NCBI GenBank assembly: GCA_036785375.1 | Contig: JAWMAR010000201.1 | Span: 248,001 to 312,000 of the forward strand | Source of the DNA: Leucoraja ocellata | Lineage: Eukaryota | Reading direction: 5' to 3' | Length of the DNA: 64,000 bases | Part shown: positions 14,107 to 63,705 of the stretch, piece after piece | Position numbering within the stretch: position 1 is the first letter of the stretch | Layout: every line of letters begins with the position of its first letter | Notes under the pieces: generated by a model | Seen by the model: the letters and a program-made list of their open reading frames with translations, nothing else | Databases searched by the model: none | What the model was told of the DNA's origin: nothing | Made by a program: the position numbers and the translations under genes

Positions 14107-14153
14107 TTAAAGGTCACACATCCTTTCTGAATTCATGTTATCCAGCACAACGG
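14107..14153 (-). CDS. Gene B exon 5 (candidate): short cytoplasmic tail (TVVLDNMNSERMCDL*)
   Basis: Acceptor ttgtctcgtcattgcttcctgtacag; phase 1 compatible with the TM exon; TAA at 14109-14107; lies in a unique-looking stretch between repeats. Confidence 0.55.
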
Positions 14154-15109
14154 CTGTACAGGAAGCAATGACGAGACAATTAAACTATAGGACATTCAGA
14201 AGAAGGCTGCAATCCATATGTTTCAAAACACGTGCCAGGTATTGGCAGCAACGTTTAATGACACAGCGATCACATAATCTCTGATGGTATTGATGACATT
14301 AAAGTTTGGGACCTCTGACAAAACAGGTTAATTTATACCATGCGTGGTCATACAGACTTAGTGACTGGTTTGACACGGAGTGAGGTAAAAGAGAACATCA
14401 CCATCCTCGCTGACCACATCCTGGAAGCCATGGGGAAGGGTCGGAGAACAGTACCATGACTACAATCTCCCGGGAGGATGGTGGCCTTTCGGGATGTTTG
14501 GAGGCTGGTGGACAACAGTGGTGCACTGCGAACTGACCATTGGGACAATCTTGTTGGCTATAATATTACAGCCTTCTATGTGCGACCGTGTGGACTTTAC
14601 TAAAGCCTGTGGGCCGGATGTGACGAGGTAAAGCCTGTGGGCCGGATATGACGGTAACCAGATTGTTCAAGGGGTGGAATGTTATATGAGAAATTTTCAA
14701 GTTCATGTACGAGCGGGGTTCTCCGACGGGCTGAGACGCGATCAGCGCCGCAGATGGAGGCAGAGAGAGAGAGAGATGTGTGCTGCTGTAAAACTGGACC
14801 CTGGGCATACCGAGAAAAGTGTTCTTTTTGTTCTCTCTTGCCAAAAAAAACTAATTTGTAACTAAACAGATGAGTGAGCCTTTTTCTGTTCTACTAGTCG
14901 GATCCTTGAGCCTAAGGTAGACACAAAATGCTGGAGTAACTCAGCGGGACAGGCAGTATCTCTGGAGAGAAGGAATGGGTGATGTTTCCGGTCGAGACTC
15001 TTCTTCAGATTGCTGGCAGGGCAGTGGGCGGGACAGGGATAGAATGTAGTCGGAGACAGTAAGAGATGGGAGAACTGGGAAGGGAGCGGGGATAGAAAGA
15101 TCGGGAAAG

Positions 15110-16060
15110 CAAGGGCTATTTGATGTCAATATTCATATCGCTGGGGTGTAAGCTACCCAAGCAAAATACGAGGTGCTGTTCCTCCAATTTGCGCTAGGAC
15201 TCACTCTAAGAATGGAGGAGGCCCAGGACTGAAAGGTCAGATTGGGAATGGGAGGGTGAGTTAAACTGCTGAGCAACCGGGAGATCAGGCAGGTTAAGGC
15301 AACTGAACGGAGGTGTTCAGCGAAACGATCGCTGAGCCTGCGCTTGGTCTCACCGATGTACAGAAGTTGATACCTGGAACAGCGGATACCATAGAGGTTG
15401 GAGGAGGTGCAAGTGAACCCCTGCCTCACCTGAAATGACTGTTGGGGTCCTTGGATGGAGTTGAAGGGGGAGGTATAGGGACAGGTGTTGCATCTCCTGC
15501 AGTTACAGGGGAAAGTACCTGGGGAGAAGGTGGTTTGAGTGGGAAGGGCCGAGTTGACTAGGGAGTTACGGAGGAAAGGGTGTCTGCAGAAAGCAGAAAG
15601 GGGTGGAGATGGGAAGATGTTGCCAGTAGTGGGATCCCGTTGGAGGTGGTGAAAGTGTTGGAGGATTATATGTTGTATGCAACGGCTGGTGGGGTGGAAG
15701 GTGAGGCCAAGTGGGACTCTTTCCTTGTTGCGAATGGGGAGCAAGAGCAGAGCTGCGGGATATCGAGGAGACCCTAGTGGGAGCCTCATCTATAATGGAA
15801 GAGTCGAAATTCCGTTTCCTATAGAATGAGGACATCTCCGATGATCATGGAAAGCCTTGTCCTGGGTGCAGATGCAGCATAGAGTAAGGAATTGGGAGTA
15901 GATGACAGTCTTTACAGGAAGCAGGGTGGGAAGAAGTGTAGTCTAGATATCTATGGGAGTCAGTAGGTTAGTAGTAGATGTCGGTCAATAGTCTGTCTCC
16001 TGTGATGGAGACGGTGATATTCAGAAACGGTAGGGAGAGTTCGGAGATGGTCCAAGCGAA
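15110..16060 (-). mobile_element. Penelope-like retroelement 3' part (GIY-YIG endonuclease)
   Basis: CNCRRCNTC...IRCSRYQLLYIGETKRRLSDRFAEHLRSV; further fragments at ~13200-13700 (+), 22097-22335 (-) and 31970-32270 (+). Confidence 0.85.
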
Positions 16061-16173
16061 CCTGTTTCCTTGCTGCAGCTACTCCAGCACTTTGTGACCT
16101 TTTCTGAATTAAACAATGGCTGCAGTTCATTGTTTCTACATTTTAACTGCAAACACTTAAAAACAGCACTCAC

Positions 16174-16272
16174 TGATGATGTGGGTGGCGACAGTGACTG
16201 AGATGAGAATCAGAAGCAGGACGGCTACGACCGTGGCCCTCAACCAACATCCACGGAGACAGCTACTCAACC
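16174..16272 (-). CDS. Gene B exon 4: stalk/transmembrane exon (GLSSCLRGCWLRATVVAVLLLILISVTVATHII)
   Basis: Acceptor cccctcttctttcaccag, donor ATCA|GTGAGT; 99 nt, phase 1-1; hydrophobic run preceded by Arg. Not present in the ORF track. Confidence 0.8.
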
Positions 16273-16766
16273 CTGGTGAAAGAAGAGGGGATCACTCATC
16301 AGAGAGACTGCACTGGGCCTTGTTCACAAACTCAGCAAGAACTCGGGGCCCACATCGTAGACTGACATCAAATAACTGTGACAGCGCTGTCCATTTACAC
16401 ACTCACAGAGCATGGATAGAACACTGCTGCAGAGTGCCTTGTCAAGATCAATGGCTCTTTGTTGGCTCCCATTGTGTCCCTGGAGAGGGAACATGTGGAG
16501 TCCACGGGGACTCTGGTGGCCTTCCGTGAACAATGACCTTCCGCATCTTTACAATGAATGCATTGTAAAGATGCCATTAGTGTTTTATGATGATTGCCTG
16601 ATGCAATGTGACTTGAACATTTTTGTACTTTCTGGTACACTGTAATATGCAATTACTGAATAAAGTCCTTGGAAGGGAAAACTAAATGTGAAGCTCCCTC
16701 TGCACTGTCTCAATGAACAATTAAACCACCACATTCTTCAAACCTGATTGGCCCTCTGACACTCAC

Positions 16767-16930
16767 CAGATGTGGTCTGTTTGCAGACGTCCTTCGGCCA
16801 GATCTGTGCTGTGCCTTCACTGACCTGGTTCCTGGCCTCGCACCTGTACACAACGTCCCCGACCTCTGCTGTGTGATGAACCTGTATTGTCTTTCCATGT
16901 CCCACGAGGTGATGGGTGATGTCATTTCCC
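16767..16930 (-). pseudogene. 5'-deleted paralogous IgC2 pseudo-exon
   Basis: GNDITHHLVGHGKTIQVHHTAEVGDVVYRCEARNQVSEGTAQIWPKDVCKQTTS with donor G|GTGAGT. Homologous to the 3' half of 26254-26534; an ~300-bp deletion removed the acceptor and 5' half. Confidence 0.8.
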
Positions 16931-17519
16931 ACACGTCAAGTCCACACGTGTGATGTGCCCCCTTCCCGAGCACTCCCTGCACCCATCCACAAACTCTCCA
17001 CTGTGTCCTGTTTATGGCTCTGTTCCCTGGGAATCTCTCCAGTTCCATATCTTTTGTCACTTGTGAGTGGTCCCAGTGTTCCTTAAAAACCCGAGTGTGA
17101 CCCAACTCAGACCGGCCCAGAACCTGGCCAACAGCGGCAGCCCTGGGACTGTGACGGACACAGAGCCAGACTGGGTAGCGTGTTGTGTTCCAGAGTGAAT
17201 CCAGCACGTGCAGATCCTGGGTCACCTATTGTAGTAGGATCTTGATTAGTTGGGCAGGTGAGCTGACGAATGGTTAATGGAGTTCAGGTTTGGTCACCCT
17301 GCTACAGGAAGGATGCTGTTCGGCAGGAAAGAGTACAGGGAAGATTTACAAGAATGTGGCCAGGACGTGAGGGCCAACGCTATAGGGAGAGTTTGGGCAG
17401 GCTAGGACTTTATTCTTTGGAGCACGAGGATGATCTGTATAATATACATCTTATAGAAGTTTAGTTTAGAGATACAGTGTAGAAACAGGCCCTTCAGCCC
17501 ACCGAGTCCACACCGACCA

Positions 17520-19328
17520 TCATGCACCTCCGATTTCTGGATTATCTCCCTATTTAGAAAATAGTCTGCACCTTTATTCCTCTGAACAAAATGCATCATT
17601 CCACACTTTGCTACACTATATTCCATCTGCCACTTGTCTGCCAACAATCCCAAGCCCTTCTGCAGACTCTTTGCTTTCTCCGCACTACCTGACCTTCCAC
17701 TTATTTTCATATCATCCACAAACTTGGCCACAAAGCCTTCAATCCCCTCGTCCAAATCATTCATCTACAACTTGAAGAGTAGCGGCCTCAGCATCGACCC
17801 CTACGGAACGTCACTAGTCACTGGCTGCCAACCAGAAAAAAAACCTTTTATTGCCACTTTTTGTCTTCTGCCATGCAGCCAACCTGCTATCCAAGCTAGT
17901 ATCTGCCCTTTGATACCGTGGGCTCTCGACTTCCTTATCAGTCTCACGTGTGGCACCTTATCAAAGGCTTTTTGAAAATCTAAGTAAATAACATCCACTG
18001 ACTCTTTGTCTGTCCTCCTATTTACTTCTTCAAAGAATTCCAGCAAATTTGTCAAGCAAGACCTCCCCTTCACAAAGCCATGCTGACTTTGACCTATTTT
18101 ATCGTGAACTTCTAAGTACTCTGTAACCTCATCTTTTATAATGGACTCTAAAATCTTACCAAGATTTTAGACCAAAGTCAGATTAACCGACCTATAGATC
18201 CCACTATTCTGCTTTGCTTCCTTGTGCAATAGGGTAATATTGGCAACTTTCCAATCATCTAGGACCTCTCCTGTCTCTAGTGATTCTTGAAAAAAGAGTA
18301 AAATTGTAGATTAGGAAGCAGAGATCAATCATGATTGAGTGGTGGAGTAAACTCGATGGGCCGAATGGCCTAATTCTACTCCTATAACCTATGAACTTAT
18401 GAAATATCACTGTCAATACCTCCACAATCACTAAAGCTGCCTCTTTCAGAAGACTAGGGTACAGTCCATCTGGTCCAGGTGACTTCAGCCTTTTCAGTTT
18501 CCCAAGCACCATCTGCCTCTAATAACCACCCCACTAACTTCCAACCCCTGGCTCTCTTGAATTTCAGGGACGTTGCTGGTGTCTCCCACTGTGTAGACTG
18601 ACGCAAAAAAGTTATTTAACTCCTCTGCTATTTTTTTATTCCCCATTGTCACTTCTCCTGCATCATTCTCCAGCGATCCAACTTCCACTCTTGCCTCTTT
18701 CTTACTCTTTATATTTTTTCACGATATTGCCTTTTTAGTTACCTTCTGTTGTTCTTTAATAGCTTTTTACTATATACATCAATGATTTAGATGAAGGGAT
18801 TCAAAGTAACATTAGCAAATTTGCAGATGACAGATGAGAATGTAGGGTGACTTGGATAGGTTGAGTGAGTAGGCTGATGCATGGCAGATGCAGTTTAATA
18901 TGGATAAATGTGAGGTTATCAACTTTGGTAGCAAAAACAGGAAGGCAGATTACTATCTAAGTGGTGTCAAGTTGGGAAAAGGGTAAGTACAACGGGATCT
19001 GGGGGGTCCTTGTTCATCAGTCAATGAAAGTAAGCATGCAGGTACAGCAGGCAGTGAAGAAAGCGAATGGCATGTTGGCCTTTATAACAAGAGGATTTGA
19101 GTATAGGAGCAAAGAGGTCCTTCTGCAATTGTATTGGCCTTAGTGAGACCACACCTGGAGTATTGTGTACAGTTTTGGTCCCCTAATTTGAGGAAGGACA
19201 TTCTTGCTATTGAGGGAGTAGGTTTACAAGGTTAATTCCCACAATGGCTGAGAGAATGGTGCGGCTGGGCTTGTATACTCTGGAGTTTAGAAGGATGAGA
19301 GGATATCTTATTGAAACATATACGATTA
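17520..19328. mobile_element. CR1 LINE fragments (minus 17520-18750; plus 18770-19328)
   Basis: GRSCLTNLLEFFEEV...YLDFQKAFDKVPH; KANGMLAFITRGFEY. Confidence 0.85.
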
Positions 19329-21822
19329 CTAGACTAATTGGGACCTGTTGGGTCCCATGTTCACACAGGAAGGCTGGTCCCCCGACGCAATATTCCACCT
19401 CTCCACCAATTCCAATATTGGTGGCCAGTGGGGGGCTTTATGGAGAACTGGTATGGGTTCTTGGGTTGGCAGCTCAGTCCCTCAAGCCTGATGTGCTGGC
19501 AGCTCACTTGCGGCTGGTGGGCTGGCAGTTGACTCATGGCTATTCCTTGAAATTCCATTTCAAGCAGGCTGCAAGGCCACCAAATTCAAGTGCAGTTTCC
19601 TGCCACTTCAAGCAGGGTACAAGGCCACTGAATTTAAGTGCAGTTTCATACCATTTCAAGCAGGGTGCAAGGCCACCAAATTCAAGTGCAGTCTTATACC
19701 ACTTTCAGCAGGGTGCAAGGCTGCCAACTTCAAGTGCAGCTTCATAACATTTCAAGCAGGGTGTAAGGTCACCAAATTCAAATGCAGCTTCATACAATTT
19801 CATGCAGGGTGCTACGCCACCACATTCAAATGCAGTTTCATACCATTTCAATCAGGGTGAAACCACCATAAAACCACACAAAACACCAAACTCACAGTTC
19901 AGTAGACATTCAGTGTGTTCAGTTGATTCACAGCTCAGACAGAGTTGTGACCTCTCCCTCCCCCATAATGCAGAGACTGAGCCACACCCTCACTTTCAGG
20001 TTTTATAACCCCTCCCCCTCCCTCTGGAAAAGGTGTGGCCTTCATGGCATGATTGACAGGAGAGTGATTCTCAACTTTTTAAACAGTAATAACACTTTTA
20101 TTTTTCATTGATGGGAAGAATCCTCTGCACCTGCTGAGCGGAGGGGGACTGAGTAAGATGGCCAAAAATCACAGCCGTAAGTGATAGCGTTTTATCTAAA
20201 ATCAATATACAGTGCAAACAGGATGTTACCCAAAGCACTCAAATCACCATTTGCAGTAGTGCCTTTTAACTTCAAGCAAAAGCACCCAAACCACAATCTG
20301 CAGCAGTGCCTTTTAACTTAAACCCAAAGCACCCAAACCACCATTTAAAGTAGTGCCTTTTAACTTCAAGCCAAAGCACCCAAACCACCATTTGCAGTAG
20401 TGCCTTTTAACTGCAAGCCAAAGCACCCAAACCACCATTTGTAGTAGTGCCTTTTAACTTCAAACCAACCATATTTTCATTTTCAAAGCACATTAAGGGG
20501 ACTCACAGTTGAGTAGACATGTGTTTAGTGTTATTCAAAGCTCAGAGAGACATGACCCTCTGGCTTCTTCCATCTTGCAGAGGCTGAGTGATGCACACCA
20601 CTTCCGGGTTTTATAGTCCCTCCCCCCCTCCCACCAGCAGGGGCAGCAGAGAGAATAGCAATTTTTTTTTAAACATTGATATCTCTCTGATTTTTAATCG
20701 ATGGGAAAATCCCTCCGGTCCCGGAAGGGGGCTCTGAGCTTGGTGGCCAAAAATGACGGCCGTAGTGGCTGTGTTCTCTCGGAAATCACAGCACAGCAAG
20801 TCAAAAGCGGTCAAGATCAGACTTTTAGTAATATACTAGACCAAGTGCAGACCCGTTGGGTCTGCTCCCCCAATGGTGTGATCCCCCAACCCAATATTCC
20901 ACCATGCACCCGTCTCCTCCAATGGAACTGAAGCCGTTCTCAAAAGTAAGATTCCAGCACTGCCCTGCCTCTTTAAAAAAAAATCCAATGGCACCTCCCC
21001 TGCCTGCTGCAGCAGTGAAAAGTTCAGTCTTCCTGTCTTTCAACTTTGTTTCGAAGTGTGTTGGAAGCTGACATGTAAATGGAGAAGCCTGTTTATTTTT
21101 GAAATACTTGGGGGTGGGTGGGTGGGGGTGAAGGATTTGATTAAAAACGTGAACTTCAACACGACAAAATGAAATGAGGAGCCGATACTTAGAAAGAAAA
21201 GCGAAATCTGCACCGAAATGGAAAATATCTCGGAGAGTGAGCGTCTGGATTGGGCGTGGCAATGAATCAAAGGAAGAAATGCAGCCGGCAGCCGTACATG
21301 CAAATGAATCCATTCCGATTGGACATCTGCGAGCATCAGCCATTCCGATTGGACATCTGCGAGTATCGGGCACGAATCGAAAGGCAGGAAGGGCGCCGGT
21401 CGGCAGTCGGTCGGATGGGGCCAGAGTTTTAAAAGCATACTAGACCAAGTGCAGACCCGTTGGGTCTGCTCCCCCAATGGTGTGATTCCCCCAACCCAAT
21501 ATTCCACCATGCACCCGTCTCCTCCAACGGAACTGAAGCCGTTCCCAAATGTAAGATTCCAGCACTCCCCTGCCTCCCTCAGCAGTGGATTGAAAAAAAA
21601 ATCCAATTGCACCTCCCCTGCTTGCTGCAGCAGTTCAAATTGCAATACCAATTGGCCCTCCCCCTCCTGTTGCAGCACTTGCTGTGATATCCCATTGAGG
21701 TGAAAAGTTCAGAGTGTTCCTGTCTTGCAACTTTGTTTTGAAGTGTGTTGGAAGCTGATAGGAAGGAGTAGCGAATCAAAAGGAAGAAAGGCAGCCGGAC
21801 GGACGGACGGCAGGCGGCAGCC
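19329..21822 (-). mobile_element. Tandem non-autonomous Helitron units with internal 48-bp and 47-bp minisatellites
   Basis: Three 3' termini (hairpin GCAGACCC-AAC-GGGTCTGC or GGGACC-CAACA-GGTCCC followed by CTAG-T) at ~19329, ~20836 and ~21440; minisatellites at 19555-19860 and 20228-20465. Confidence 0.75.
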
Positions 21823-21955
21823 NNNNNNNNNNNNNNNNNNNNNNNNNNNNNNNNNNNNNNNNNNNNNNNNNNNNNNNNNNNNNNNNNNNNNNNNNNNNNN
21901 NNNNNNNNNNNNNNNNNNNNNNNNNNNNNNNNNNNNNNNNNNNNNNNNNNNNNNN
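21823..21955. other. Assembly gap
   Basis: Run of N. Confidence 1.
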
Positions 21956-24082
21956 GCGTGTGCGTGCGTGTGTACGCGTGTGTATAATATATATATACAC
22001 ACAGTTTCCCTCCTGGGATTAATAAAGTTCAATCTTATAGTATCGTGTTATCGTGTGTGTAGGAAGGAACTGCAGATGCTGGTTTAAACTGAAGATACGC
22101 TTGGTCTCACCGATGTAGAGCAGCTGCCACCTAGAGCATTGGATGCAATAGATGAGGTTGGAGGAGGTGCAGGTGAACCTCTCCCGCACCTGGAAAGACT
22201 GCTTGGGTCCTTGAATGGAGTCAAGGGGGGAGGTAAAGCGACAAATGTAGCATTTCCTGCGGTTGCCTGGGAAAGTGCCAGGAGAGGGGGTGGATTGGGT
22301 GGGAAGGGACAAATTGACCAGGGAGTTGCTGGAGAAAATCAGCGGGTAAGGCAGCATCTATGGAGCGAAGGAAGTGACGACGTTTCACGTCGAGACCCTT
22401 CTTCAGATTGATGTCGGGGGGGGGGGTGGGGTGGGGCGCACGAAAAAGAAAGGAAGAGGCGGAGATAGTACGCTGTGGGAGAGCTGGGAATGGGAGGGGA
22501 AGGAGGGAGAAACCAAGGACTACCTGAAATTAGAGAAGACAAAAGGTGTGAGATAAGGATAGAAGATAGACTTTATTGTATTTTAAATTTTGTTATGGTA
22601 CCCACTGCAACCACTTCATCAGGTTACACATTCCATTTATGTACCACCTTCTGTGTGGAAAACATTGCCCCAAACTTTTCCACTAAATCTTTCCCCTCGC
22701 ACATTAAAGTTATGACTTCTAGTTCTTGATTCTAAAGCCCTGGAGAAAAGGCAATGTTCACCCTATCTCTGCTATACGTGATTTTATACATCTCTGTAAG
22801 ATCACTCAGCATTCTACTCTCCAAGAAATAAAGTACTAGCCAGCTCAACCTCTCACTGTCATGTCAACATCCTTGTACATTGTTCTGTACGCTTTCCAAC
22901 TTAATGGCATATCTCCTATTTCATTTGACCAAAATTGAACTCAATACCCCTAATTGTGGCTTCATCACAGTTTTGTACAACTGCAACATAGCATCCCAAC
23001 TTTTATAATGAATGCCTATACTGATAAACGGCAGCATGTCAAAAGCCTTCTTCACCACCCTGTCAACCTGTGATGTTATTTTCAGGGAACTATGTACTTG
23101 TACTCAGTCCCTCTGTCGTATGAGACCCTCCAGGGATCAATGTTATAATACATTGATTAAGCCACAGCTGGAATATATTGTGTACAATTCTGGCCATCAC
23201 ACTAGAGAAAGGGTGTGAGTTGGATGATCAGCCATGATCATATTTTGCAGTTGTACAAAACTGTGATGAAGCCACACTTGGAGTATTGAGTTCAATTTTG
23301 GTCAACATGAAATACGAGATATGCCATTAAGTTGGAAAGCATACAGAATGGCGGTTCAGGCTCGAAGGGCCGAATGGCATACTCCCGCACCTATTTTCTA
23401 TGTTTCTATTTCACTGGAGCAATGCAGAGGAGATTCATCAAAATGTTGTCTGGGATTGAGTGTTTCAGTTATGAGGGGAGACTGGATTGGTTGCGTTTGT
23501 TTTCTTTAGAGTGGTGGTGGCTGAGAGTGGAGGAGTGCTGTTATAAATGCACCACATCATGGGGGACTTAGATAGGGGAGATAGTATGAATAGGTTGCCA
23601 AGCCGGGCAAAATGACTCGGTGTTTAGTTGCCCGGCGGCGCTTTGAGTGGTCAATGGCACCAAGGCAACCGTTAATTTTGAGCCCTGTAGTGTGAATAGA
23701 TTTTTCTAATAGAAGATATATATTTAAGGAGAGTAGTGAAAGGTTATAGAGGATCTGTGGAAGATTTGTAAATGAAACTAACATTACAATAACTTTGAAA
23801 CTAACATTACAATGCTGCAAAAATATATTCTGCATTCTGGTATTTTTCTTTTTGCTTGTGTATAGCTTGATTGTAGTTACATGTATGTTTAAGAAGGAAC
23901 TGCAGATGCTAGAAAATGGAAGGTAGACAAAAATGCTGGAGAAACTTTGCAGGTGAGGCAGCATCTACAGAGCGAAGGAAATAGGCAACGTTTCGGGTCG
24001 AAACCCTTCTTCAGTCTGAACATGTTACCCACATTATTCTACATTTGTTAGATCCTTGCCCGCTCACTTATCTTGCCTTATT

Positions 24083-24397
24083 ATCTATACAGGTATTACT
24101 AAAACTAAGATCTTGACCGCTTTCGACTTTCTGTTTCGTGATTTCCGAGAGAACGCCGCCATTTACGGCCATCAATTTTGGCCACCTCGCTCAGAATCCT
24201 CCTCCGCCCGACAGGACCATGGGATTTTTCCCATCGATGAAAAATCAGAGAGTTATTAATGTTTTAAAAAATGTCACCATTCTCTCTGCCGCCCCAGCTG
24301 ACGGCAGGGGGGAGGGACTATAAAACCCGGATGTCATGCCTCACTCAATCTCTGCGAGATGGATGAAGTGAGAGGGTCACAGCTCACTGAGCTGCGA
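24083..24397 (+). mobile_element. Helitron 5' fragment of the same family
   Basis: TCTATAC...TATTACTAAAACTAAGATCTTGACCGC matches the reverse complement of 20530-20834. Confidence 0.65.
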
Positions 24398-24497
24398 AGG
24401 ACCTGTTTCCATGAGCTCCTCCTGTGGAATGTGTTACCCTGCTGCCTGTCTCTTGCTTGCCCATTGTTGCCCTGTTCCGACGTTTGTGCAGACCTAC

Positions 24498-24773
24498 CTG
24501 AATGCTGCTCACACACGCGTTCCCTGGTGAAGTTGGCGGACTGGCGGCTGACGGGATTCCACACCGTGCAGGCGTAGTCGATTCTGTCGGAGGCCCCCAG
24601 CGACAGCAGGAGCTCGTCGCCCAAGTCGGACACCTGCCCGAGGGGGGAGCCGGCCCCGGGGCTCCAGCCAAAGTTCATCTCGTCTCCGGCCGCAGCGGAA
24701 CACCTGAGGGTCAAGTTGCAGGAGTGGCCTAAGCTGCTGTTGGCCACCTCCACCCTGACTCCAGACACCGGCT
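24498..24773 (-). CDS. Gene B exon 3: IgC2 domain of SLAM type
   Basis: Acceptor ctccttttccctgcag, donor TCAG|GTAGG; 276 nt, phase 1-1. EPVSGVRV...SCNLTLRCS...FGW...YACTVWNPVS...VCE has the four-Cys pattern typical of SLAM-family C2 domains. Confidence 0.9.
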
Positions 24774-25580
24774 CTGCAGGGAAAAGGAGGAGAGTGATAT
24801 GGAGCAACCAGGGCACAATCCTGTCTCTGGTTCAGGACCTCAAGGAGCCAGACCTCTCCGCCCGGCTCGTCTCGTTTGACCACCCGCATGCCTCTCACCC
24901 CGCCACCTCGTGTGCGTGTGTCCCCAGTCCCCCATCTCGGATTGGGACCCTTCTTCAAACAGAATCAATCAACAAAATGTCAGACCGAAAAAGTGTGCTA
25001 TGCATTCAGTCTCTCCACGCAGGTTGTGTTTCAATTCCTTGACCGTGTGGGTTTACACCGGGTGCTCCGGTTTCCCACCTCATCTCAAATACGTTAATTG
25101 CCTGCTGTAAATTGCTCAGTGTGTTGGTGGAATCTAAGTGCAGCTGCTTTGTGTGTGTGTGTGTGTGTGGGTGTGTGGGTGTGTGGGTGAGTGAGTGAGT
25201 GAGTGAGACAGATAGAGGAAAAAAACGAAAACCTGCTGGTCTACATGGAAATAAGGAGCAGAGGAATGGGACTGTGGGATTGTTCCCTGGGGGCCAGCCT
25301 GGTCCCAATGGGACGAATGGCCTCTTGCGGTGTGTAAAGCAAATCCATTATAACGCTCCTCCTTCAAGGGGAAAGAGAGGTAGCGAACGGAAGATTATTT
25401 TTAGTTTGCCGAACAATGAGAAATCTGTAGAATCCCTAAACCAATGATTCGGAGCAGGGAATCACAGTCTGAAGAAGGGTTTCGGCCCGAAACGTCGGCT
25501 ATTTCCTTCGCTCCATAGATGCTGCTGCACCCGCTGAGTTTCTCCAGCAATTTTGTGTACCTTCATTGATATAGATGGTC

Positions 25581-25780
25581 NNNNNNNNNNNNNNNNNNNN
25601 NNNNNNNNNNNNNNNNNNNNNNNNNNNNNNNNNNNNNNNNNNNNNNNNNNNNNNNNNNNNNNNNNNNNNNNNNNNNNNNNNNNNNNNNNNNNNNNNNNNN
25701 NNNNNNNNNNNNNNNNNNNNNNNNNNNNNNNNNNNNNNNNNNNNNNNNNNNNNNNNNNNNNNNNNNNNNNNNNNNNNNNN
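25581..25780. other. Assembly gap
   Basis: Run of 200 N. Confidence 1.
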
Positions 25781-27479: not shown

Positions 27480-28980
27480 TTACGAGACTTCTACCTCGTC
27501 AGTCCCTACGTCTTCCCTCGCAAGGGACTGAATTCCATCCCTCACCAGCCGAGCTACTCCCCCTCCTCTGCCCACCTGCCTGTCCTTTCTATAGGATGTA
27601 TAACCCTGAATATTAAGTTCCCAGGCTCGATCCACCTGCAGCCACGTCTCAGTAATCTCCACAATGTCATATCTACCAACCTCTAACTAGGTATGTTGCA
27701 AAGCGTACCTGAAGCGTCACTGAAAATCTGTCCCAGCCCGTGTGCTTGATTTTGGCGCCGTTTAGAGGGGGGCGGGTTTAAAACGCGATTTTCTCTAGGC
27801 TGTTCAAATCGAGTTTGTTCAGCCTAGTTAATTATTAACGAAAATTCGCTGGTAGGTTCCCTCACATGAGCTATTATTAGTTTTACGAGTTTTTCCTAAG
27901 TGCTATAGTAGTTTAAAAATTAACCTCTAAACCCCCGACGGCTCGCAACCAGCTATAGAGCAGAAATCTGAAGGGTAGCAGTATTTTTTTACATTAAAAA
28001 GGGCTTCTTAAGATCACTTTATACAAAGTTTAATATTGCGAGTAGCTAATTTTGGGCCCATTATATCCCGCAGTATTTTTCTGGGCATTTGAGAGCACAA
28101 ATCTACCACAATGTGAACGTTCTAAACCAGCGCGTTCACAGGATCCCACAAGAAAGCTGATTTAAAATGGACTTTAATTCACAGCAGTTGAACACTAAAT
28201 TCCTTCCATTTGGCCTATAAATTAATGTAAATGAGATTTAAAAATCATGTTTTATTGTGAATTATTTGTGAATATTATTTGGACACTTAGGCTATTTAAA
28301 AATGTTAATCATTTATTAAGAAATGGATAGATGTTTAGATCTAGTAATTGAAGTTTGAAATTAGCTACAAGTGGGTAACTAACTAATTATATGCTTTAAT
28401 TTCAGGTCATCCGAGTAAGATTATTTTATATTTGTTTCAGAATGCTTCAATCTAGGATAACTGAAAATTTCATTCAGTTCTCTTAATTTTTAAGAAGGTT
28501 ATGTGCTTTTGACTGTTCACGATCACAGCTTTTTTGTTATGTCCATAGAAAATCAATAGGGAACAAGATGCTAATTTCCGAGTATGAAAATGGCCATAAC
28601 TTTTTAAATACTTGAGATATGAAAGTGAATTAGGTGCCAAATTAAACTTCTTTTTATGCTTTATCTGATGGGATAAATTACAGACTTGATTTTTTAAATC
28701 TCAAAATTTTGTAACATTGCTACTCTAACTGAGCCTCAAGCTCATCTACTTTACTCCTTATACTTCACACATTCATATACAATACTTTTAATTCCTAACA
28801 CATCTCACCTTTCACATCGATCCCTCTTACACTTGGCCATACTCTCCTATCCCTTTGTGAGCTTCCTTTCCCGTTAATTCTGGGGTCATTAACCATCCCT
28901 TTACTCTCTTTCTCTTTAACTCCGTCCTCGACTATCCCATTTGACACCCCACCCCCCCTTATTCAGTTTAAAACCACACG
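27480..28980 (-). mobile_element. CR1 LINE endonuclease 5' fragment (interrupted)
   Basis: ITETWLQ...NIQGY...RKDRQVGRGGGVA motif. Confidence 0.8.
27688..28722. mobile_element. ~1-kb non-autonomous TIR element inserted into a CR1 endonuclease fragment
   Basis: Imperfect TIRs TAGGTATGTTGCAAA / TTTGTAACATTGCTA, TSD CTCTAAC(T); the CR1 frame KVDELEAQ|LEVGRYDIVEITETWL is rejoined when the element is removed. Confidence 0.8.
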
Positions 28981-30705
28981 TGTAGCAGTGGCAAACTGCC
29001 TGTCATAATGCTGGTCCCCCAAAAGTACCATATGTCCTTTTATTCTGAGGCTATGGCCTCGGGTCCTGGACTCAATCATTAATGGAAACATATTCTCCGC
29101 ATCCAGTCTATCCACGAAACAGCAGAGAGCCCCTATACATATCCAGCTCCAGGCAACTTCCAAGCTATAGTACTGAAGACCTGTACTCCTGAAGTCGTGG
29201 CACGTCTGGCCAAGTTGTTTTTGCAACATTGGCATCCAGTGACAATGTGGAAAATTCCCCTCATGTTTGCTGTTCAAAAACAGGATGAATCCAATCAGCT
29301 GATCACCTTCCAATTGGTCTACTCTTGATCACCAGCAAAGTGAGAGAAGCTATTGTTGACACTTTTATCATGCAGCACTTACTCACCAATAACCTGCTCA
29401 CTGAAGCTGAAGATCTCATCAGGGCTTTGGTCCAAGACTGGAACGTAAAGCTGAGTTGCAGAGATAAGGCGAGGCTGACTGTCCTCAACATCAACGCATT
29501 GTTTGACTGAGTGACATTAGGGAGCCCTTGTAAAACTAAAATCAATGAACATCCAGGGGTTAACAATCTGACGTGAGTCACACCTCTCACGGAGGAAGAT
29601 GATTGTGGTCATTGGAGGTCAGTCAATCCAGCCACAGGTCATCACTGCAGGTGTCCCACAGGGCAGTGTCCTGGGCTCAACCAGCTGCTTCATCAATTAC
29701 CTTCCTGGCATTGCAACATTTGACTGATGATGGCACAATGTTCAGTTCCATTATCAACTCAACTGCATGCAGCAGGACCCAGCGAATATTCAGGCAGTGG
29801 CTGATAAGTGGGAAGTTTGCAACCACGTGATGGAAGTGTCAGCAGGAGACAGCCCAGTGCTTGAGACTCAATGATTCTCCCAGCAGCAAGTCCCACATCA
29901 TCAAAACAACGGAACAGTAACTCAACAATACTAATTACACATGCTCTGTGGCTATTGGAGAAAGTTTGAGGCTGGGTATCCCGTATCCTGACACCATGAC
30001 CTTTCCTCATTTACAGGACATGTCAGGAGTGTAAGGGAACACTCTTCAAATACCTGGGTGAGTGCAGCTTCAACATCACTCGAGAAGTTGCCATCACCTG
30101 CAACTGAAGCAGCTGCTTAATCAGATCCCTACCTACTTCCTTAAATACTCCCACCCTCCAGCAGCCTAAGCACTTCCTCCCCCATCCTAATATCATCCTT
30201 CTGCCACTCTAAGCACTCCCACCACCACCCCAAGCATTCCCTCTGTCCAATCCTTAAACATTCCATCCCTCTATGGAATGGGATAAAGAAGGGTCTCGAC
30301 CCGAAACGTTGCCTATTTCCTTTGCTCCATAGATGCTGCCCCACCCACTGAGTTTCTCCAGCATTTTTGTCATCCCTCTATCAATGTGGGTGGTATGTAT
30401 GTAATCCAGAAAATTCACCCGGGAGCCTGGAACAAATTCCTTCCTCATGGAGCAGTGGGAACGTGGGAACCGTTGACGGTTCGATGCTTCACGGCCCCTG
30501 GCCCAATGATCGGGGATGTGGTGGGCCTGTCCCCCAGCCTGGCACTGCCCCAGTCCCACTACACTGGGACCGTGACGCCCACTCTACATACTGGCATTCA
30601 GTGGGGTTCAGTAAACTGGGGAACGCACAGGATCTGCCCTCGCCCATTAATTAGAGCGGTTCAGGAGCCGGTGAAAGCCGGAACATCCGCGGCAGTCTCA
30701 CTCAC

Positions 30706-31023
30706 CGTACACCTCCAGTCGGACTCCCGCTGAAGTTTTAACTCCTGAACGTGTAACAACATCCACCTGGTAATCACCAGCGTCATCTCTCCGTAGATCA
30801 CGGATTTCCAGACTGAAGTTCCCGCGGTGAAGAGTTACCCGTCCCTTGTAATTGGTGGTATAGTATTTAATATTCTCAGCCGAGTACTTGGCTATCTTGG
30901 TGCTGGGTGATGTCCGGATCCACTCAACGCTGCGAACATCCGGTGTGACTGTGATCCCAGCAGGTAAGGAGACCGAGTGTCCCCGAGCTCCGGTCACGGT
31001 GCCAGCGGCGGCCCCAGTCCCAG
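30706..31023 (-). CDS. Gene B exon 2: N-terminal IgV domain lacking the canonical disulfide (CD2/SLAM type)
   Basis: Acceptor ctctcttgtctcctcag, donor TACG|GTGAGT; 318 nt, phase 1-1. Translation has VTGARGHSVSLP, VEW, YKGRVTL, NFSLEIRDLRRDDAGDYQV and VRLEVY; no Cys in the B or F strands. Confidence 0.9.
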
Positions 31024-32339
31024 CTGAGGAGACAAGAGAGGCAGTCAGCAGGAGAGCTCGGTGACTGGAGGAGGAATCGGAGCTGGGAGAATCACAGAGC
31101 ACAGGAGTAGGCCATGCGGCCCATCGTCTGGCTCCCGGCTCTGTTAGTGACCCGGCCCACAGTTCCTATAGCACATAGTGAGCCCATGGGGGGAACAGAG
31201 TGAAGACATTCTGCACCGGGGCCGAGGAAAGAAGTTACTGCCTGCAGCCAGATATAGACGGATGGGTCAGGGGGAACAGACACGGCAAATGGGACCTGGT
31301 CTGAAAAAGAAGGGTGATGGGGTGAGTTTGGAGAGAGTGAACATGGTGGAGGAACGGGGTAAATGGGAGGGTGTGAGTGATATGGTGGGCACAAGGAGCA
31401 GACCTTTGGAGTGCACTTACACAGATCCCTGAAGGAGGAAGTAAGGACAGGTGGGTGACTGAATACCACACAAGAAATGATCAAAAGGTGAGAGCACACG
31501 ATCCAGGGAAAATTGGCAAATCGGATGCAAAATTATCTGGGTGTTTGGAGGCAGAAGATATTGGTAGAGGGTTGGTTTTGTTATTGGAACCCTGTGACCA
31601 GTCGTGTACTGCAGGGATTGTTGTTGGGATTCTTACTCCCTGTGTACAATAAAAATGTCTAATTCGTAAGTTTACAGATGACACAAAAAAAATCAGTGGT
31701 GTCATTGATCGGAGCATAGTCATAGACTAGAATATACCGTTCAGTTGTTAAAATGGGCAGAGCGATTACAGGTGGAATTTGTTTCTAATAAGTGCAAAAT
31801 TAGATATTTTGGGAAGTTATAGAATGAGAACATATTTAGAATGGTAGGGTCATAAGGAGTGTTGAAACACAGAGGGATCTTGATATACTAGTCCAAGGAT
31901 CTCTACAGGTAGCAGCATAGGTGGATCTGGTGGTGAAGGTATACGGAATATTTGCCTTTATTGGTTGAACACGGGTTCACCTGCACTTTGTCTAACCTCA
32001 TCCACTGCATCTGGTGTTTATGATGTAGCCTCCTTTACATCAACAGGATGAAGCATAGATTCGGCGACCGATTTACCGAGCACTAGCCCTCGGTCTGCCA
32101 AGGCCTGCTGCATCTCTTGGCTGCTAACTATTTTTAAATCACCTGGGCCTTTCTGTCCTGGACCTCCATCATTGTCAAAATGAGGCCACATGCAAGCTGG
32201 AGGATAGCACCTCAAATTCCGTCTGGGTAGCTTACAACCAATAGAATTCTCCAATATTAGGTAACTGTTCTGTACTGGCCGCTGTTCTTTTCCACAATAT
32301 CCCGGGTCCCGGGTGGGGGCGGGGGGGGGGGGGGGGGCA

Positions 32340-33560: not shown

Positions 33561-33589
33561 TATTCATGTGTGTATATCTATCTATCTAT

Positions 33590-36530
33590 CTTCTAGTATA
33601 TATTAAAAGTCTGTGTCCGACCAGCCGACTTTCTGCCTGACTTGTGACTGCCAGCCTTTGATTCCTTGCTACGTCAACACCAGACGTAGAATCGCCGAGA
33701 TGTTTTCCATTTCAGTAGAGATTTCACTTTTCATTTCAAGTATCAACTCCTGATTAAATTTTGTCGTGTTTATGTACACATTTTTAATAAAATCCTTCTC
33801 CCCCTCTCCCCTAAATTTTTGTTTTTTTAAATGACTTCTCACCCATAGAATGTTGGTGAACGTTCAATCGTGTGATGTCACAATGCCCAATGCTCACAGA
33901 TGTCCAATCGGAATAGATCCATTTACATATGCCTTTGCAACAGCCCCAGCCCCTCCCCCCAGCCGGAGTCGAAGCGCGTCATCACGTGTGTGGGAATAGA
34001 GAAAGAGGATTGGGGGTGAAAGGGAATGAGGAACAGATGGACTGTCCCAACCCCTCCTCCTTCCACTCTCCCTCCCCACTATTTCCCCTCTCTCCCCCAC
34101 CCCTCTCTCCCTCCCGCCACACTCTTACCCCTCCCTCCCCTGCTCCATCCCTCCCACACACCTCTCTCCCCATCCCTCTCTCCCTCTCCCCATCCCTCTC
34201 TCCCCATCTCCATCTCCTCACCCCTCTCCTCCCCCTTCTCCCACCCCATCCCCCTTTCCCCACCCCCCTTCCCTCTCCCCACCCTCCCCCACCCCTTTTC
34301 CTCTCTCCCACCCCTCTCCCCCTCCATCCACACTCTCACCCCTCCCTCCCCTACCCCGCATCTCCCTCCTCCCTCCCCATCCCTCCCCCTCTCCACCCCT
34401 CTCTCCTCCACCTCTATCAACCCCCGCCCCTACCCTCCCCTCTCCCACCCCTTTCCCTCTCTCCCCCACCCCTTTCCCCCTCCCCACTCTTCCCCCTCCA
34501 TCCACACTTTTCCCCCTCTACCCCATCTCCTTGCCTCCCTCCCCCACACCTCTCTCCCCCTACCCTCGCCTCCCCCACCCCTCTCCATCTCCGTCTCCTC
34601 ACCCCTCTCCCCATCCCTCTCACCCACCCCCTTCCCTCTCTCCCCTTGCCCCTTCCCCCTACCCCCCTGTTCCTCTTCCACCCGCTACCCCTCCCGCCCC
34701 ACTCTTCCACTTCTCTCCCCCTTACCCCACCACTCCCCCTCCCTTCCCTCTCTCCCCACCCCTTCCCTCTCTCCCCCACCACTTCCCCTCTGTCCCTTCC
34801 ACCACTCCCCCTGCCCCTCTTCCACAACTCCCGCTCCCTCCCTACTTCCACTTCTCTCCCCCCCTCCCTCCCCAATCTTTCCCCTCTCTCCCCCTCCCAT
34901 CCCACTCTTCCCCCGCCCCCTCCACACTCTTCCCACTCTCTCCCCTTCCCCTTCTCCCTCCTCCCTCGCTCCCCTTCCCCCACCCCACTTTCATCCTCCC
35001 ATCTCCTCCCAACCCCCTTCCCCTCTCTCTTGCACCACTCCCCGCTACAGCTCTCCCACCCCCCCTACCCCTCCCCCCACCATCGTGTGATGTCACAATG
35101 CCCAATGCTCACAGGTGTCCAATCGGAATGGATCATTTACATATGCCTTTGCAGCAGCCCCAGCACCAGCCCCCCACCCCACCCCCGCAACCTGTGTCGA
35201 AGCTCAGCATCACGTGTGTGGGAATAGAGAAAGAGGATTGGGGGTGGTAGGGAATGGGGAACAGATGGACTGTCCCCACCCCTCCCCCTTCCACTTCCTC
35301 CGCACTATTTCCCCTCTCTCCCCCACCCCTCTTCCCCTCCCTCCACACTCTTACCCCTCCCTCCCCTACCCCATCCCTCCCCCACACCTCTCTCCCCATC
35401 CCTCTCTCCCCCTCTCATCACCCCTCTCTATCTCCCTCTCCTCCCACCCCCATCCCCCTTCCCTCCCCTACCCCTTTCCCTCTCTCTCCCACCCCCTCCC
35501 TCCACACTCTTACCCCTCCCTCCCCTACCCCATCTCTCTCCTCCCCCACACCTCTCCCCCTCCCCATCCCTCTCTCCACCTCCCTCCTCACCCCTCCCAT
35601 CCCACTCTCCCCCACCCCCCTTCCTTCCCTCCCCCACCCCTTCCCTCTCTCCCCCACCCCGCCCCTTTCCCTCTCTGTCCCACCCCTTTTCCCCTCCCCA
35701 CTCTTCCCCCTCCATCCACACTTCCCCCTCTACCCCCTACCCCATCTCCCTCCTTGCCTCCCTCCCCCTCCCCCACACCTCTCTCCCCCCTCTCTCCTCG
35801 CCTCCCCCATCCCACTTTCCTCCCCCTCTCCATCTCCCTCTCCTCACCCCTCTCCCTCTCCTCACCCATCTCCCTCTCCCATCCCTCTCTCCTCAGCCCC
35901 CTTCCCTCCCGCCCCCTTCCCCTACCCCTCGTCCACCACTCCCCTACCCTCCCTACCCCACTCTTCCACTTCTCTCCCCCTACCCACCCCTCTCCCTCTC
36001 CCTCCCCCACCCCTCTCCCTCCCCTTCCCTCTCTCCCCCACCCCCTTCCCTCTGTCCCTCTTCCACCATTGCCCCTGTCACTCTTCCACCACCCCCTACC
36101 CCTCTCCCCTCCCTCCGCACTCTTCCACTTCTCTCCTAACCTCCCTCTCCCACTCTCCCTCCCCACTATTTCCCCTCTCTCCCCCTACACCTCCTCCCTC
36201 TCCCACCCCATCTCCCCCCTCCCCCACACATCTCTCCCCCTCCCCATCCCTCTCTCCTCCCCCTCTCCATCTCCCTCTCTTCACCCCCTCCATCCCTCTC
36301 TCCCCCACCCCCTTCCCTCTCTCCCCTCGCCCCCTACCCCTCCTTCCCCACTCTTCCGCTTTTCTCCCCCTTACCCCACCACTCTCCCTCCCCACCCCCC
36401 TCTCTCCCCCCCTCCCCCTCCCTTCCCTCTCTCCCCCTCCCTTCCCTCTCTTCCCCCTCCCTTCCCTCTCTCCCCCACCCCTTCCCACACCCCCCTGTCC
36501 CTCTTCCACCACTCGCGCTGCCCCTCTTTA
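33590..36530 (+). repeat. Helitron-like 5' segment followed by an expanded C/T-rich low-complexity repeat
   Basis: 33880-33930 and 35085-35145 match the Helitron internal motif (TGTCCAATCGGAATGGAT); ~2.5 kb of almost pure polypyrimidine. Confidence 0.6.
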
Positions 36531-38660
36531 GATATTTAGATCAAACCACATGCCATTTCTCTGCCCATTTCTGTAGTTGATCTATATTCTGCTGTAATCT
36601 TTGACACCTTCCTCACTGTCTGCAACTCCACCAATATAAATATATATAATATTAAACACCCAATAGTGATCCAACACAGATCCTTTTGGAACTCCATTGG
36701 ACACAGACCTCCAGCCAGAATAACACTCTTCCCCCACAACCTTCTGCCTTCTATGAGTGAGCCAGTTCTGAATCTGAATGTCCAAGTCACTGTGGATCCC
36801 ATGAATCTTAAATCAGGCCCTTCATCCCAGTGCTACGAAACTACCTGGTGCGAGGAACTGTCTCTGCTGTGTTGTGCAATTCTGTTATTAGACAGCTCAC
36901 TTGGAGTTGGGGTTCATTACTGTTATCCATCAGAGCTGATAGTCTGAATGTCCAGAGCCCGGTAGAAGTCGGAAGCTGCTGTCAGGGTGCAATGAGCTGG
37001 TTCTGATAGGGAGGGTGTTTGGTCAAATATTGCATCAAATGGTGGCAGGAAGTGGTTCAGGCTCAGAACACTTTGCTGAACAAGAAGTATGTGAAGTGAA
37101 AAATAGAGCTGGACTGCGGATGTAAAGCGAGAGTAGTGGAATGGGTGGAGGGCGGGGGTTGTTGAAGGGAGGGAGGGAGAGAGATAGCGAGGCACAAATG
37201 GGAATACAATGTTAATTACAGAGAGGTTTGTAGAGATGTCAGGAACCAGCAGAAAGTGACAGAACTGGAGAAAGAGGCACAGAAATAGGCTTCCCCCTAC
37301 CCCTCGTCCACCACTCCCCTACCCTCCCTCCCCACTCTTCCACTTCTCTCCCCCTACCCCACCCCTCTCCCTCTCCCTCCCCCACCCCTCTCCCCTCCCT
37401 TCCCTCTCTCCCCCACCCCTTCCCCTCTGTCCCTCTTCCACCATTGCCCCTGTCACTCTTCCACCACCCCCTACCCCTCTCCCCTCCCTCCGCACTCTTC
37501 CACTTCTCTCCTAACCTCCCTCTCCCACTCTCCCTCCCCACTATTTCCCCTCTCTCCCCCTACACCTCCTCCCTCTCCCACCCCATCTCCCCCCTCCCCC
37601 ACACATCTCTCCCCCTCCCCACCCCTCTCTCCTCCCCCTCTCCATCTCCCTCTCTTCACCCCCTCCATCCCTCTCTCCCCCACCCCCTTCCCTCTCTCCC
37701 CTCGCCCCCTACCCCTCCTTCCCCACTCTTCCGCTTTTCTCCCCCTTACCCCACCACTCTCCCTCCCCCTCCCTTCCCTCTCTCCCCCTCCCTTCCCTCT
37801 CTCCCCCCTCCCTTCCCTCTCTTCCCCCTCCCTTCCCTCTCTCCCCCACCCCTTCCCACACCCCCCTGTCCCTCTTCCACCACTCGCGCTGCCCCTCTTT
37901 AGATATTTAGATCAAACCACATGCCATTTCTCTGCCCATTTCTGTAGTTGATCTATATTCTGCTGTAATCTTTGACACCTTCCTCACTGTCTGCAACTCC
38001 ACCAATATAAATATATATAATATTAAACACCCAATAGTGATCCAACACAGATCCTTTTGGAACTCCATTGGACACAGACCTCCAGCCAGAATAACACTCT
38101 TCCCCCACAACCTTCTGCCTTCTATGAGTGAGCCAGTTCTGAATCTGAATGTCCAAGTCACTGTGGATCCCATGAATCTTAAATCAGGCCCTTCATCCCA
38201 GTGCTACGAAACTACCTGGTGCGAGGAACTGTCTCTGCTGTGTTGTGCAATTCTGTTATTAGACAGCTCACTTGGAGTTGGGGTTCATTACTGTTATCCA
38301 TCAGAGCTGATAGTCTGAATGTCCAGAGCCCGGTAGAAGTCGGAAGCTGCTGTCAGGGTGCAATGAGCTGGTTCTGATAGGGAGGGTGTTTGGTCAAATA
38401 TTGCATCAAATGGTGGCAGGAAGTGGTTCAGGCTCAGAACACTTTGCTGAACAAGAAGTATGTGAAGTGAAAAATAGAGCTGGACTGCGGATGTAAAGCG
38501 AGAGTAGTGGAATGGGTGGAGGGCGGGGGTTGTTGAAGGGAGGGAGGGAGAGAGATAGCGAGGCACAAATGGGAATACAATGTTAATTACAGAGAGGTTT
38601 GTAGAGATGTCAGGAACCAGCAGAAAGTGACAGAACTGGAGAAAGAGGCACAGAAATAGG
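35915..38660 (+). repeat. Near-identical ~1371-bp tandem duplication
   Basis: Identical ORFs offset by 1371 (36536/37907, 36666/38037); junction near 37289. Confidence 0.9.
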
Positions 38661-38924
38661 GTCAGTGAGAGAAGGAGTGTTTGGACAGAGAGCGAGATAA
38701 AGAAAGATAACATCAGCAGAATGGAAGAGCGGCTGTGAATGACACAGAGAGGGACGGAATGAGAGACCAGTTTGTCCCACCTTTATGACAGTGTGGCAGC
38801 ATTTGGGATAGCATAAAGCCAGGAAATTACCACAATTGGTTGAATGGCCTTTATATGCACTGAAAACCTGCACAAGCCTCACACTCATCGATAACCAGAG
38901 TTGATCATTAATATCTGTACTTAC

Positions 38925-38985
38925 CTACACAGATGCCGATGAAGGATGCACAGAGTAGGAAGGGGATCCTCCTCAAAGAAAACAT
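38925..38985 (-). CDS. Gene B exon 1: signal peptide of a CD2/SLAM-like receptor (MFSLRRIPFLLCASFIGICV)
   Basis: aagATG start; basic then hydrophobic 20-aa leader; ends G|GTAAGT (phase 1), which joins in frame to the IgV exon; TATAAA about 30 nt upstream. Confidence 0.75.
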
Positions 38986-63616: not shown

Positions 63617-63705
63617 CATCTCGTTCTCCTCCCGAGGCTGTCTGTTGGCTGGATGTCTCTGTGATGGCTGGGGTTGTGCATAGATAGTCTCCATGTTTGA
63701 TGGGC
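63617..63705 (-). CDS. Gene A cytoplasmic exon with ITSM-like TIYAQP
   Basis: Acceptor cttcttactctcccccacag, donor ATG|GTAAAG; phase 1-0; encodes PSNMETIYAQPQPSQRHPANRQPREENEM. Confidence 0.7.

Follow-up and report, generated by a model that had tools for sequence, protein, structure and literature searches.

A CD2/SLAM-like receptor gene with corrected exons, on the minus strand of the skate (Leucoraja ocellata) window of 64,000 nt, likely acts as the activating half of a receptor pair, docking on an FcR-gamma-type adaptor (probability roughly 0.48). Unprefixed coordinates are positions in that window; C201 and C175 are contigs of the same skate assembly. Splicing would run from signal peptide to V, C2 (26534), optionally a borrowed C2 (24773), transmembrane domain (TM) and tail (13271), giving 295 aa without the borrowed C2 and 387 aa with it. 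The product would join a V and C2 ectodomain, close to that of an ITSM-bearing neighbour, to a short-tailed anchor with an Arg. Unequal crossing-over would have built the gene, gene conversion would keep its V close to the partner's V, both receptors would share a ligand, and the TM Arg would dock the adaptor, leading to activation. The parts of this reading are not mutually independent and differ in strength: the exon correction (26534-26254 included, last exon at 13271) is very probable, the copy is probably a live gene, and adaptor-coupled activation is somewhat favored.

Members of the CD2/SLAM family have a V domain without the canonical disulphide and a C2 domain with four Cys. The skate gene has the same pattern, with no Cys in V and four in each of the C2 exons 26534-26254 and 24773-24498. 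Its V exon scores over the cut-off for Pfam V-set and Receptor_2B4, both C2 exons give Ig matches, and the domains follow the family layout of membrane-distal IgV, proximal IgC2 and TM described in PMC4718992. With a relative (P0016) as the query, the closest solved structures were CD2 (3e-8), SLAMF6 (2e-6) and SLAMF5 (7e-5), with CEACAMs at 1e-6, a small margin. Domain trees comprise ray sequences only. No ITSM was found, neither candidate tail (14153 or 13271) having a Tyr; the motif is not required for CD2/SLAM membership. ITSMs are often present in the family and are absent in SLAMF2, 8, and 9. The original prediction of a type I CD2/SLAM-like receptor stands in its signal peptide, Cys-free V, C2, outer-end TM Arg, and short Tyr-free tail, and falls short in its choice of exons.

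The ectodomain closely matches that of a linked gene with a signaling tail. Exon 1 (38985-38925, minus strand, 61 nt) encodes a signal peptide whose leader is common to A. radiata P0010 and P0011, and the upstream neighbour has a related exon. The V-set Ig exon (31023-30706, minus strand; Pfam V-set 6.9e-14) is 91% identical in amino acids to that of this neighbour, which has an uncharged TM and an ITSM tail; its last two cytoplasmic exons, with the ITSM, lie on the minus strand at 62477..63705 and its remainder outside the window at C201:312-331 kb. The locus thus shows the linked partner, near-identical ectodomain (V 91% aa) and tyrosine-motif tail that define paired receptors. Block comparison points to a likely gene-conversion tract at 29997..31023, where identity to the neighbour is 96.9%; three blocks flanking it reach 92.8-94.7% (Fisher P 1e-5, tract boundaries picked post hoc). 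On the V tree, which holds ray sequences only, the nearest relative of 7/9 Arg-TM V domains is an ITSM-type V, the remaining two are closest to each other and not to an ITSM partner, and the Arg-TM/ITSM label needs 8 changes. The skate receptor is likely the "on-switch" partner of its ITSM neighbour; that the two signal in opposite directions is an assumption, because ITSM tails, according to PMC4718992, can deliver either activation or inhibition.

The TM exon (16272-16174, minus strand) encodes two outer Cys, an Arg in a CxLR motif, and an inner His, and has four copies in the genome, all in the cluster and 98–100% identical. Across six sequences from the skate and four other ray species, both Cys, the Leu-Arg and the His are invariant, while the Trp beside the Arg and other flanking residues vary. 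The Arg sits at the N-terminal TM end in 6/6, as in NxxR-type, FcR-gamma-coupled receptors (PMC2413239), and ITSM-bearing cluster members have uncharged TMs without it. All three observations argue against a live gene with corrected exons in which the Arg is a mere boundary residue and the product a short-tailed decoy or adhesion ligand that, like SLAMF8/9, competes with the ITSM partner. We consider that alternative unlikely, even though the motif is CxLR and not NxxR (Cys at the Asn position in 6/6), the most hydrophobic 19-mer begins three residues after the Arg, and SLAMF8 and SLAMF9 of mammals lack an ITSM and have some 30 residues inside the cell, as PMC4718992 describes. In NxxR-type FcR-gamma-coupled receptors, according to PMC6557307, the inner end of the TM carries an acidic residue; all six ray sequences have His there and no Asp or Glu. 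We do not class the skate receptor as an NxxR-type member of that group; it may work like one. A GPI anchor was rejected, a polar tail following the hydrophobic stretch in 5/5 relatives.

The same cluster contains a candidate adaptor. An FcR-gamma-like gene lies at C201:592435-595602 (PF11628 match at C201:592449), with a TM exon of the zeta/gamma type that carries Cys and Asp and has FcR-gamma as its best solved match (1e-10, vs. 4.5e-9 and weaker for CD3-zeta); contig C175 has a more zeta-like exon. For the single ITAM, split over two exons, that marks FcR-gamma, there is one candidate last exon with YxxL, a 20-aa piece with no solved match, and a search for the leader and middle exons of this gene did not find them. 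A complex predicted for the receptor TM and a pair of FcR-gamma-like TM peptides, run without alignment or folded controls, scored 0.04 and 0.03 (mark 0.34) and speaks neither for nor against docking. The "activating" label that the skate receptor already bore in the original prediction is an inference.

The cognate C2 exon (26534-26254, minus strand), previously set aside as dead, is 281 nt long and frame-shifted in the assembly and intact in 2/2 other DNA runs. One X1 contig (125 nt) and one X3 contig (139 nt) span the site behind 26512 with one extra base and no substitutions, which yields a canonical in-frame C2 exon of 282 nt. Over the 138 nt there, the nearest paralogues show 9 and 11 differences, which excludes a paralogue origin of these contigs. 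The CD3-zeta-like exon on C175 is likewise one base short (no read check), which fits assembly indels. The 281-nt form is likely a one-letter assembly error; since X1 and X3 bear different organism labels, it may instead be an allele genuinely present in the assembled animal. This C2 class comes after this V class in 21/21 relatives, and a 173-nt contig of run X16 (presumed RNA) matches the exon exactly and ends at its donor. Protein search with the exon returned four relatives, none from the skate gene itself.

Downstream, the conserved last exon (13271-13144, minus strand) is kept in 3/3 paralogues and ends all five annotated proteins with this TM. A 335-bp deletion takes its usual stop, and the frame reads on to a stop at 13146-13144, leaving a Tyr-free run-on tail of 42 aa. 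The second native C2 exon is a remnant (16932-16767, minus strand) that lacks about 290 bp relative to the paralogues, including the acceptor and 5′ third. Both deletions are known from the assembly alone, without a read check, and the copy that carries them may be decaying. A decaying pseudogene whose intact exons reflect only recent duplication would account for both deletions, the foreign intron block described below and the assembly frameshift, and three paralogues with this TM and tail are intact. We nevertheless judge it an unlikely reading: the frameshift is missing from both other data sets, the presumed-RNA contig has no differences from the C2 exon over 173 nt and stops at the donor, and the last-exon deletion leaves the tail open and Tyr-free.

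A run of 200 N at 25581..25780 hides the upstream end of a duplicated block, and five further 200-N stretches across 662 kb of sequence suggest that it is a scaffold gap of unknown length. The gene model crosses this gap of unknown content. The block (24395..25580, minus strand) reaches the gap edge and is 95.8% identical to a SLAMF6-like gene at C201:541009-542216. It contains a C2 exon, intact and SLAMF6-like in class (24773-24498, minus strand), that departs from its source at 6 nt and 3 aa; the exon, beside the gap, belongs to an incomplete copy of another gene. Past gap and block, the intron continues the ITSM neighbour's post-C2 intron collinearly, and sequence comparison places a switch to homology with the Arg-TM paralogues' intron at 18765..22536, a zone that includes a 133-N stretch (21823-21955). 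The gene is thus mosaic in its ancestry. A hidden TM exon at 22536-23221 was rejected as a degenerate LINE. Hydrophobic candidates at 38079 and 36708 were also rejected: both fall inside a tandem duplication, and relatives have nothing to match them.

One possibility is that two genes lie astride the gap: a signal peptide-V-C2 gene above it, whose product would be secreted as with A. radiata P0011, and on the lower side an activating partner of the SLAMF6-like gene with a leader and V hidden by the gap. Another V class stands in front of the SLAMF6-like C2 class in 5/5 proteins, in the source gene the V exon ends 302 bp past the point where the copy reaches the gap, and Rhinoraja (P0025) has tandem copies of the SLAMF6-like V-C2 unit. 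However, scoring of 40 out of 1108 candidates turned up no second copy of the SLAMF6-like V exon in the assembly, the intron on the lower side of the block follows the neighbour's post-C2 intron collinearly, and the single P0010 model links both sides. On this evidence two genes are improbable.

The original prediction joined five minus-strand exons, 38985-38925 (61 nt), 31023-30706 (318), 24773-24498 (276), 16272-16174 (99) and 14153-14107 (47). All were found again, with the 801-nt sum, 266-aa frame, phase-1 junctions, and AG/GT at every splice site as claimed; its sequons fall at N89, N138, N146, and N207 and its two Cys at 223 and 227. The signal peptide, V, and TM exons hold, and two of the five (the C2 exon and the last exon) are likely wrong. 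Phase 1-1 is common to the V exon, both C2 exons and the TM exon, which can thus be combined in any selection without loss of frame, and 13 of the 34 acceptor-like AGs between the TM donor and 13271 yield a tail of 8–30 aa; that the frame is open is therefore no argument for the earlier exon choice over others. Paralogue comparison and the acceptor count indicate that 14107..14153 (minus strand) is likely intron sequence: it is whole in one of three paralogues, partial in one and absent in one, and its acceptor is the weakest of six scored (10/14 pyrimidines). Despite canonical sites and an open frame, the 266-aa protein is a very improbable main product, given that the skipped C2 is intact in other data sets, that V is joined straight to 24773-24498 in 0/30 relatives, and that exon 5 is not kept in paralogues; if the assembled animal truly has the 281-nt exon, skipping it would be the only route to a membrane protein. 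The model had also been called complete, a label that the deletions in a third C2 exon (16767-16932) and in the true last exon leave unsupported. Absence from the ORF track is to be expected for any spliced gene. In RNA runs X24, X15, X16, and X17 over 14000-31200, repeats dominate and exon depth is too low for use; the 15 of 637 joints listed were all repeats, with no exon-exon joint among them, and no read or contig examined linked two exons. A search across sequencing runs listed no RNA run with a match. Two X24 reads fit only partially and were left out of evidence.

The closest known gene is A. radiata LOC116986580 (XP_032898069.1, P0010), which has leader, V, first C2, second C2, Arg TM and tail in the same order (V 84%, Arg TM 94% vs. 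the skate gene) and whose V is 98% identical to that of its ITSM partner XP_032898512.1. Both are automatic RefSeq models, and P0010 has an implausible N-terminal extension. In contrast to XP_032898069.1, the skate copy has its second C2 deleted, a C2 of a foreign subfamily in an intron, and its last-exon stop lost. In the trees, the 26534 exon and the first C2 of P0010 fall in a 6-row set (95/85), and the 16932 remnant and its second C2 in a 10-row set (100/94). The skate locus yields a corrected gene model whose thorny-skate counterpart (V-C2-C2-TM-short tail) is an automatic RefSeq model. Xenopus CD2/SLAM-like receptors with an NxxR TM were reportedly described by Guselnikov in 2011. According to PMC4536121 and PMC6557307, Arg-TM SLAM-like receptors are already known in Xenopus, whose expanded family has tyrosine-motif tails and Arg TMs as in the skate. 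The Xenopus motif is NxxR (PMC4536121, PMC6557307). The skate receptor, from a cartilaginous fish and known from sequence alone, has a CxLR motif, a pair of Cys and an inner His. Mammalian FcR-gamma-coupled LILRA2, GPVI, NKp46, Fc-alpha-R, and OSCAR share the Arg near the outer TM end and the short tail, and PMC2413239 and PMC6557307 give them LRC-type C2 domains and NxxR, unlike the CD2-type V-C2 without Asn of the skate. Mammalian SLAMF8 and SLAMF9 share V-C2-TM and a short ITSM-free tail, and the duplicated V-C2 of SLAMF3/Ly9 is the form that the skate gene would have if the gap hides a V exon (PMC4718992). Unlike the skate receptor, SLAMF8/9 and Ly9 have no near-identical ITSM twin or charged TM described in the accessible text of PMC4718992. 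Literature searches, judged on the best 12–15 of larger result sets and with most subscription journals outside coverage, found no cartilaginous-fish paper on either FCER1G or paired SLAM-like receptors.

For the skate assembly, frameshifts call for a read check before an exon is called dead. The cluster has an FcR-gamma-like gene despite a 2014 survey whose accessible text reports FcR-gamma as absent in sharks (PMC4016189). A wider reading, which we regard as doubtful, is a live three-donor mosaic in which the SLAMF6-like C2 exon replaced the deleted second C2 on a ray-wide CxLR anchor coupling to FcR-gamma; the source V exon would perhaps have been copied too, hidden by the gap, producing an Ly9-like four-domain receptor. 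If true, this mosaic would reveal a second way of coupling to FcR-gamma, one that does without NxxR, and would trace paired SLAM signaling back to the jawed-vertebrate ancestor. In rays, an old Arg anchor has been kept and its V repeatedly rematched to that of ITSM receptors, a pattern typical of paired receptors under pathogen pressure.

The gene under study, a minus-strand CD2/SLAM-like receptor, is real and ordinary in kind. Skate proteins are its nearest matches, the V domain reaching 86% and one C2 95% in protein comparison. Its contig, C201, of which the window is 248001–312000, belongs to a 3.44 Gb genome and carries 14/30 genome matches of its V exon and 19/31 of its C2 exon at 26534. 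Across C201:1–672000, examined except for 130001–140000, CD2/SLAM-like genes form a tandem and inverted cluster. V domains without the canonical disulphide and C2 domains with four Cys characterize the CD2/SLAM family. Other family features follow PMC4718992; PMC10751288 marks slamf genes close to the shark MHC.

Elsewhere in the cluster, four tandem near-identical C2 exons are spaced ~5.8 kb apart (C201:606517–624181); the three intact ones have Ser in place of the second Cys, one is frameshifted (the fourth), and we found no V exon of either class beside them. C201:6989–31507 and 221852–244653 are an inverted duplicate pair with unit order V, broken C2, V, C2, TM, tail, and two such V exons are joined in one A. 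radiata protein (P0003). Two Ig-like exons of another type (C201:89242–89424 and 108463–108672) have a weak likeness to the C2 exon. Within the window, intron 1 contains a ~1.37 kb tandem duplication (35919–38660, 98.8% identity) adjoining a long C/T-rich low-complexity tract (33867–36323), inverted and direct repeats of ~0.4–1.4 kb (95–97% identity) containing a short repeated unit occupy 3532–5478, and frameshifted LINE ORF2-like frames that look by eye like endonuclease and reverse transcriptase lie on the minus strand of an AT-rich stretch (54179–57612).

With a probability of about 0.48, just short of even, we read the locus as a live gene with corrected exons, encoding an adaptor-coupled activating partner of its ITSM-bearing upstream neighbor. 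The tail lacks Tyr, so that signaling would probably require an adaptor. In the TM, 6/6 sequences share the Arg, the two outer Cys, and an inner His without variation. A TM exon whose best match is FcR-gamma lies 320 kb away within the SLAM-like cluster; together with a candidate YxxL last exon, which may be one base short, it makes up the traced part of an FcR-gamma-like gene (C201:592435–595602; L077, L041). The shark screen in PMC4016189 reports no FcR-gamma. Tetrapod receptors, Xenopus SLAM-like receptors included, couple to FcR-gamma via an NxxR TM motif, as described in PMC2413239, PMC6557307, and PMC4536121. In contrast, the skate motif has Cys in place of Asn, and we therefore keep this receptor out of the NxxR class, to which it would at best be analogous in its working. 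A short-tailed decoy, against which the invariant Arg speaks, is unlikely.

We give similarly little weight to a pseudogene, for which the apparent lesions would speak. As assembled, a third C2 remnant upstream of the TM exon lacks ~290 bp including its acceptor, the last exon has lost its stop to a 335-bp deletion, its frame continuing to 13144, and the C2 exon at 26534–26254 has 281 nt, one base below both copies in the upstream neighbor. The original prediction called this C2 exon dead, a view not borne out by the sequencing runs: both DNA-type runs (2/2) carry an in-frame 282-nt form, which is a canonical four-Cys C2. Contigs of X1 (kind unrecorded) and X3 (DNA presumed), which are separate samples from separate studies with separate organism labels and one contig listed per run at the site, have one extra base behind 26512 and 0 substitutions over 125 and 139 nt; the closest paralogues show 9 and 11 mismatches to it over 138 nt. 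The 281-nt form fits an assembly indel, and a CD3-zeta-like TM exon (C175:2976731–2976793; L078) of 103 nt, likewise one base short of frame and likely through another such indel, is consistent with errors of this kind; alternatively, the shorter form may be an allele private to the animal that was assembled. A contig of run X16 (RNA presumed, depth 2.5) matches 26426–26254 exactly, the match ending at the donor with seven letters beyond. Were the exon joined directly to the TM exon (16272), the match would run on by a single G; it does not, which hints weakly at a further C2 as the following exon.

Mosaic ancestry bears on whether two genes flank the 200-N gap (25581–25780). The upstream neighbor (window 62477–63705 plus C201:312150–331430) is the SP-V-C2-C2-TM-tail counterpart of A. 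radiata P0009, with leader at C201:331336, V at 328108, two tandem C2 exons, an uncharged TM at 312293, and an ITSM tail. From its leader (38985) to 22536 our gene resembles this neighbor, and from 18765 downward it resembles the Arg-TM paralogues, cluster genes sharing the short-tailed TM with the CxLR Arg. A. radiata XP_032898069.1 (P0010) has the matching mosaic order V-C2-C2-TM-tail, which makes it likely both that the fusion predates the split of the L. ocellata and A. radiata lineages and that the sequences flanking the gap are one gene. Two separate genes are accordingly quite improbable.

The single gene would encode 295 aa without, or 387 aa with, a borrowed C2 exon (24773–24498). This exon has two genome matches, itself and C201:541840, the latter within a complete SLAMF6-like gene (C201:535807–547012) that has a leader, V, TM, and ITSM tail of its own. 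That gene is the donor of a copied block (24395–25580, 95.8% identical), which stops at the 200-N stretch, 302 bp before the source's V exon. The 24773 class occurs in 5 of 30 relatives, always (5/5) with the other V class; our gene's V class occurs in 25/30, of which 21 have a C2, and 21/21 use the 26534 class. The two C2 classes are >2 changes per site apart (tree of 43 rows). Since the borrowed exon is intact, with good splice sites and one residue off the little-skate protein, it may be included in mRNA.

At the 3′ end, the TM exon has four genome copies, all within this cluster, and occurs in 5/30 relatives, of which 5/5 terminate in one 16-aa tail type. The exon for this tail starts at 13271 and is found in 3/3 paralogues; the alternative last exon at 14153 is whole in one, partial in another, and absent from the third. 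The window sequence does contain all five exons of the original prediction, with their GT-AG sites and open frame of 266 aa, as well as the four sequons and the two outer Cys. The open frame is only weakly informative on exon choice: every Ig and TM exon is phase 1-1, and the interval from the TM donor to 13271 holds 34 acceptor-like AGs, of which 13 yield tails of 8–30 aa. The choice of 24773 as C2 and 14153 as last exon is likely wrong, relatives and paralogues using the 26534 class and 13271, and the exact 266-aa model is very hard to sustain.

V domains of Arg-TM receptors are typically closest to those of ITSM-type receptors. Our V tree has 19 rows, 7 drawn from the 14 C201 V matches and 12 from the 30 proteins, those with an assignable tail type, near-duplicates and protein P0002 excluded. 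TM type requires eight changes on it and clusters no more than shuffled labels. An ITSM-type V is the nearest relative of 7/9 Arg-TM V domains (91% in the window, 98% in A. radiata, 94% in Hemitrygon, 87% in Rhinoraja, only 56% in Pristis), and the other 2/9 are nearest to each other. The V exon (31023) and its downstream intron are 96.9% identical to the neighbor's, versus 92.8–94.7% for three flanks, with boundaries set post hoc; 9/11 V codon differences change a residue, a number too small for a selection claim. Recurrent gene conversion likely underlies the resemblance to ITSM partners. What merits follow-up is the pairing seen across rays, together with the non-NxxR anchor and the FcR-gamma-like gene.
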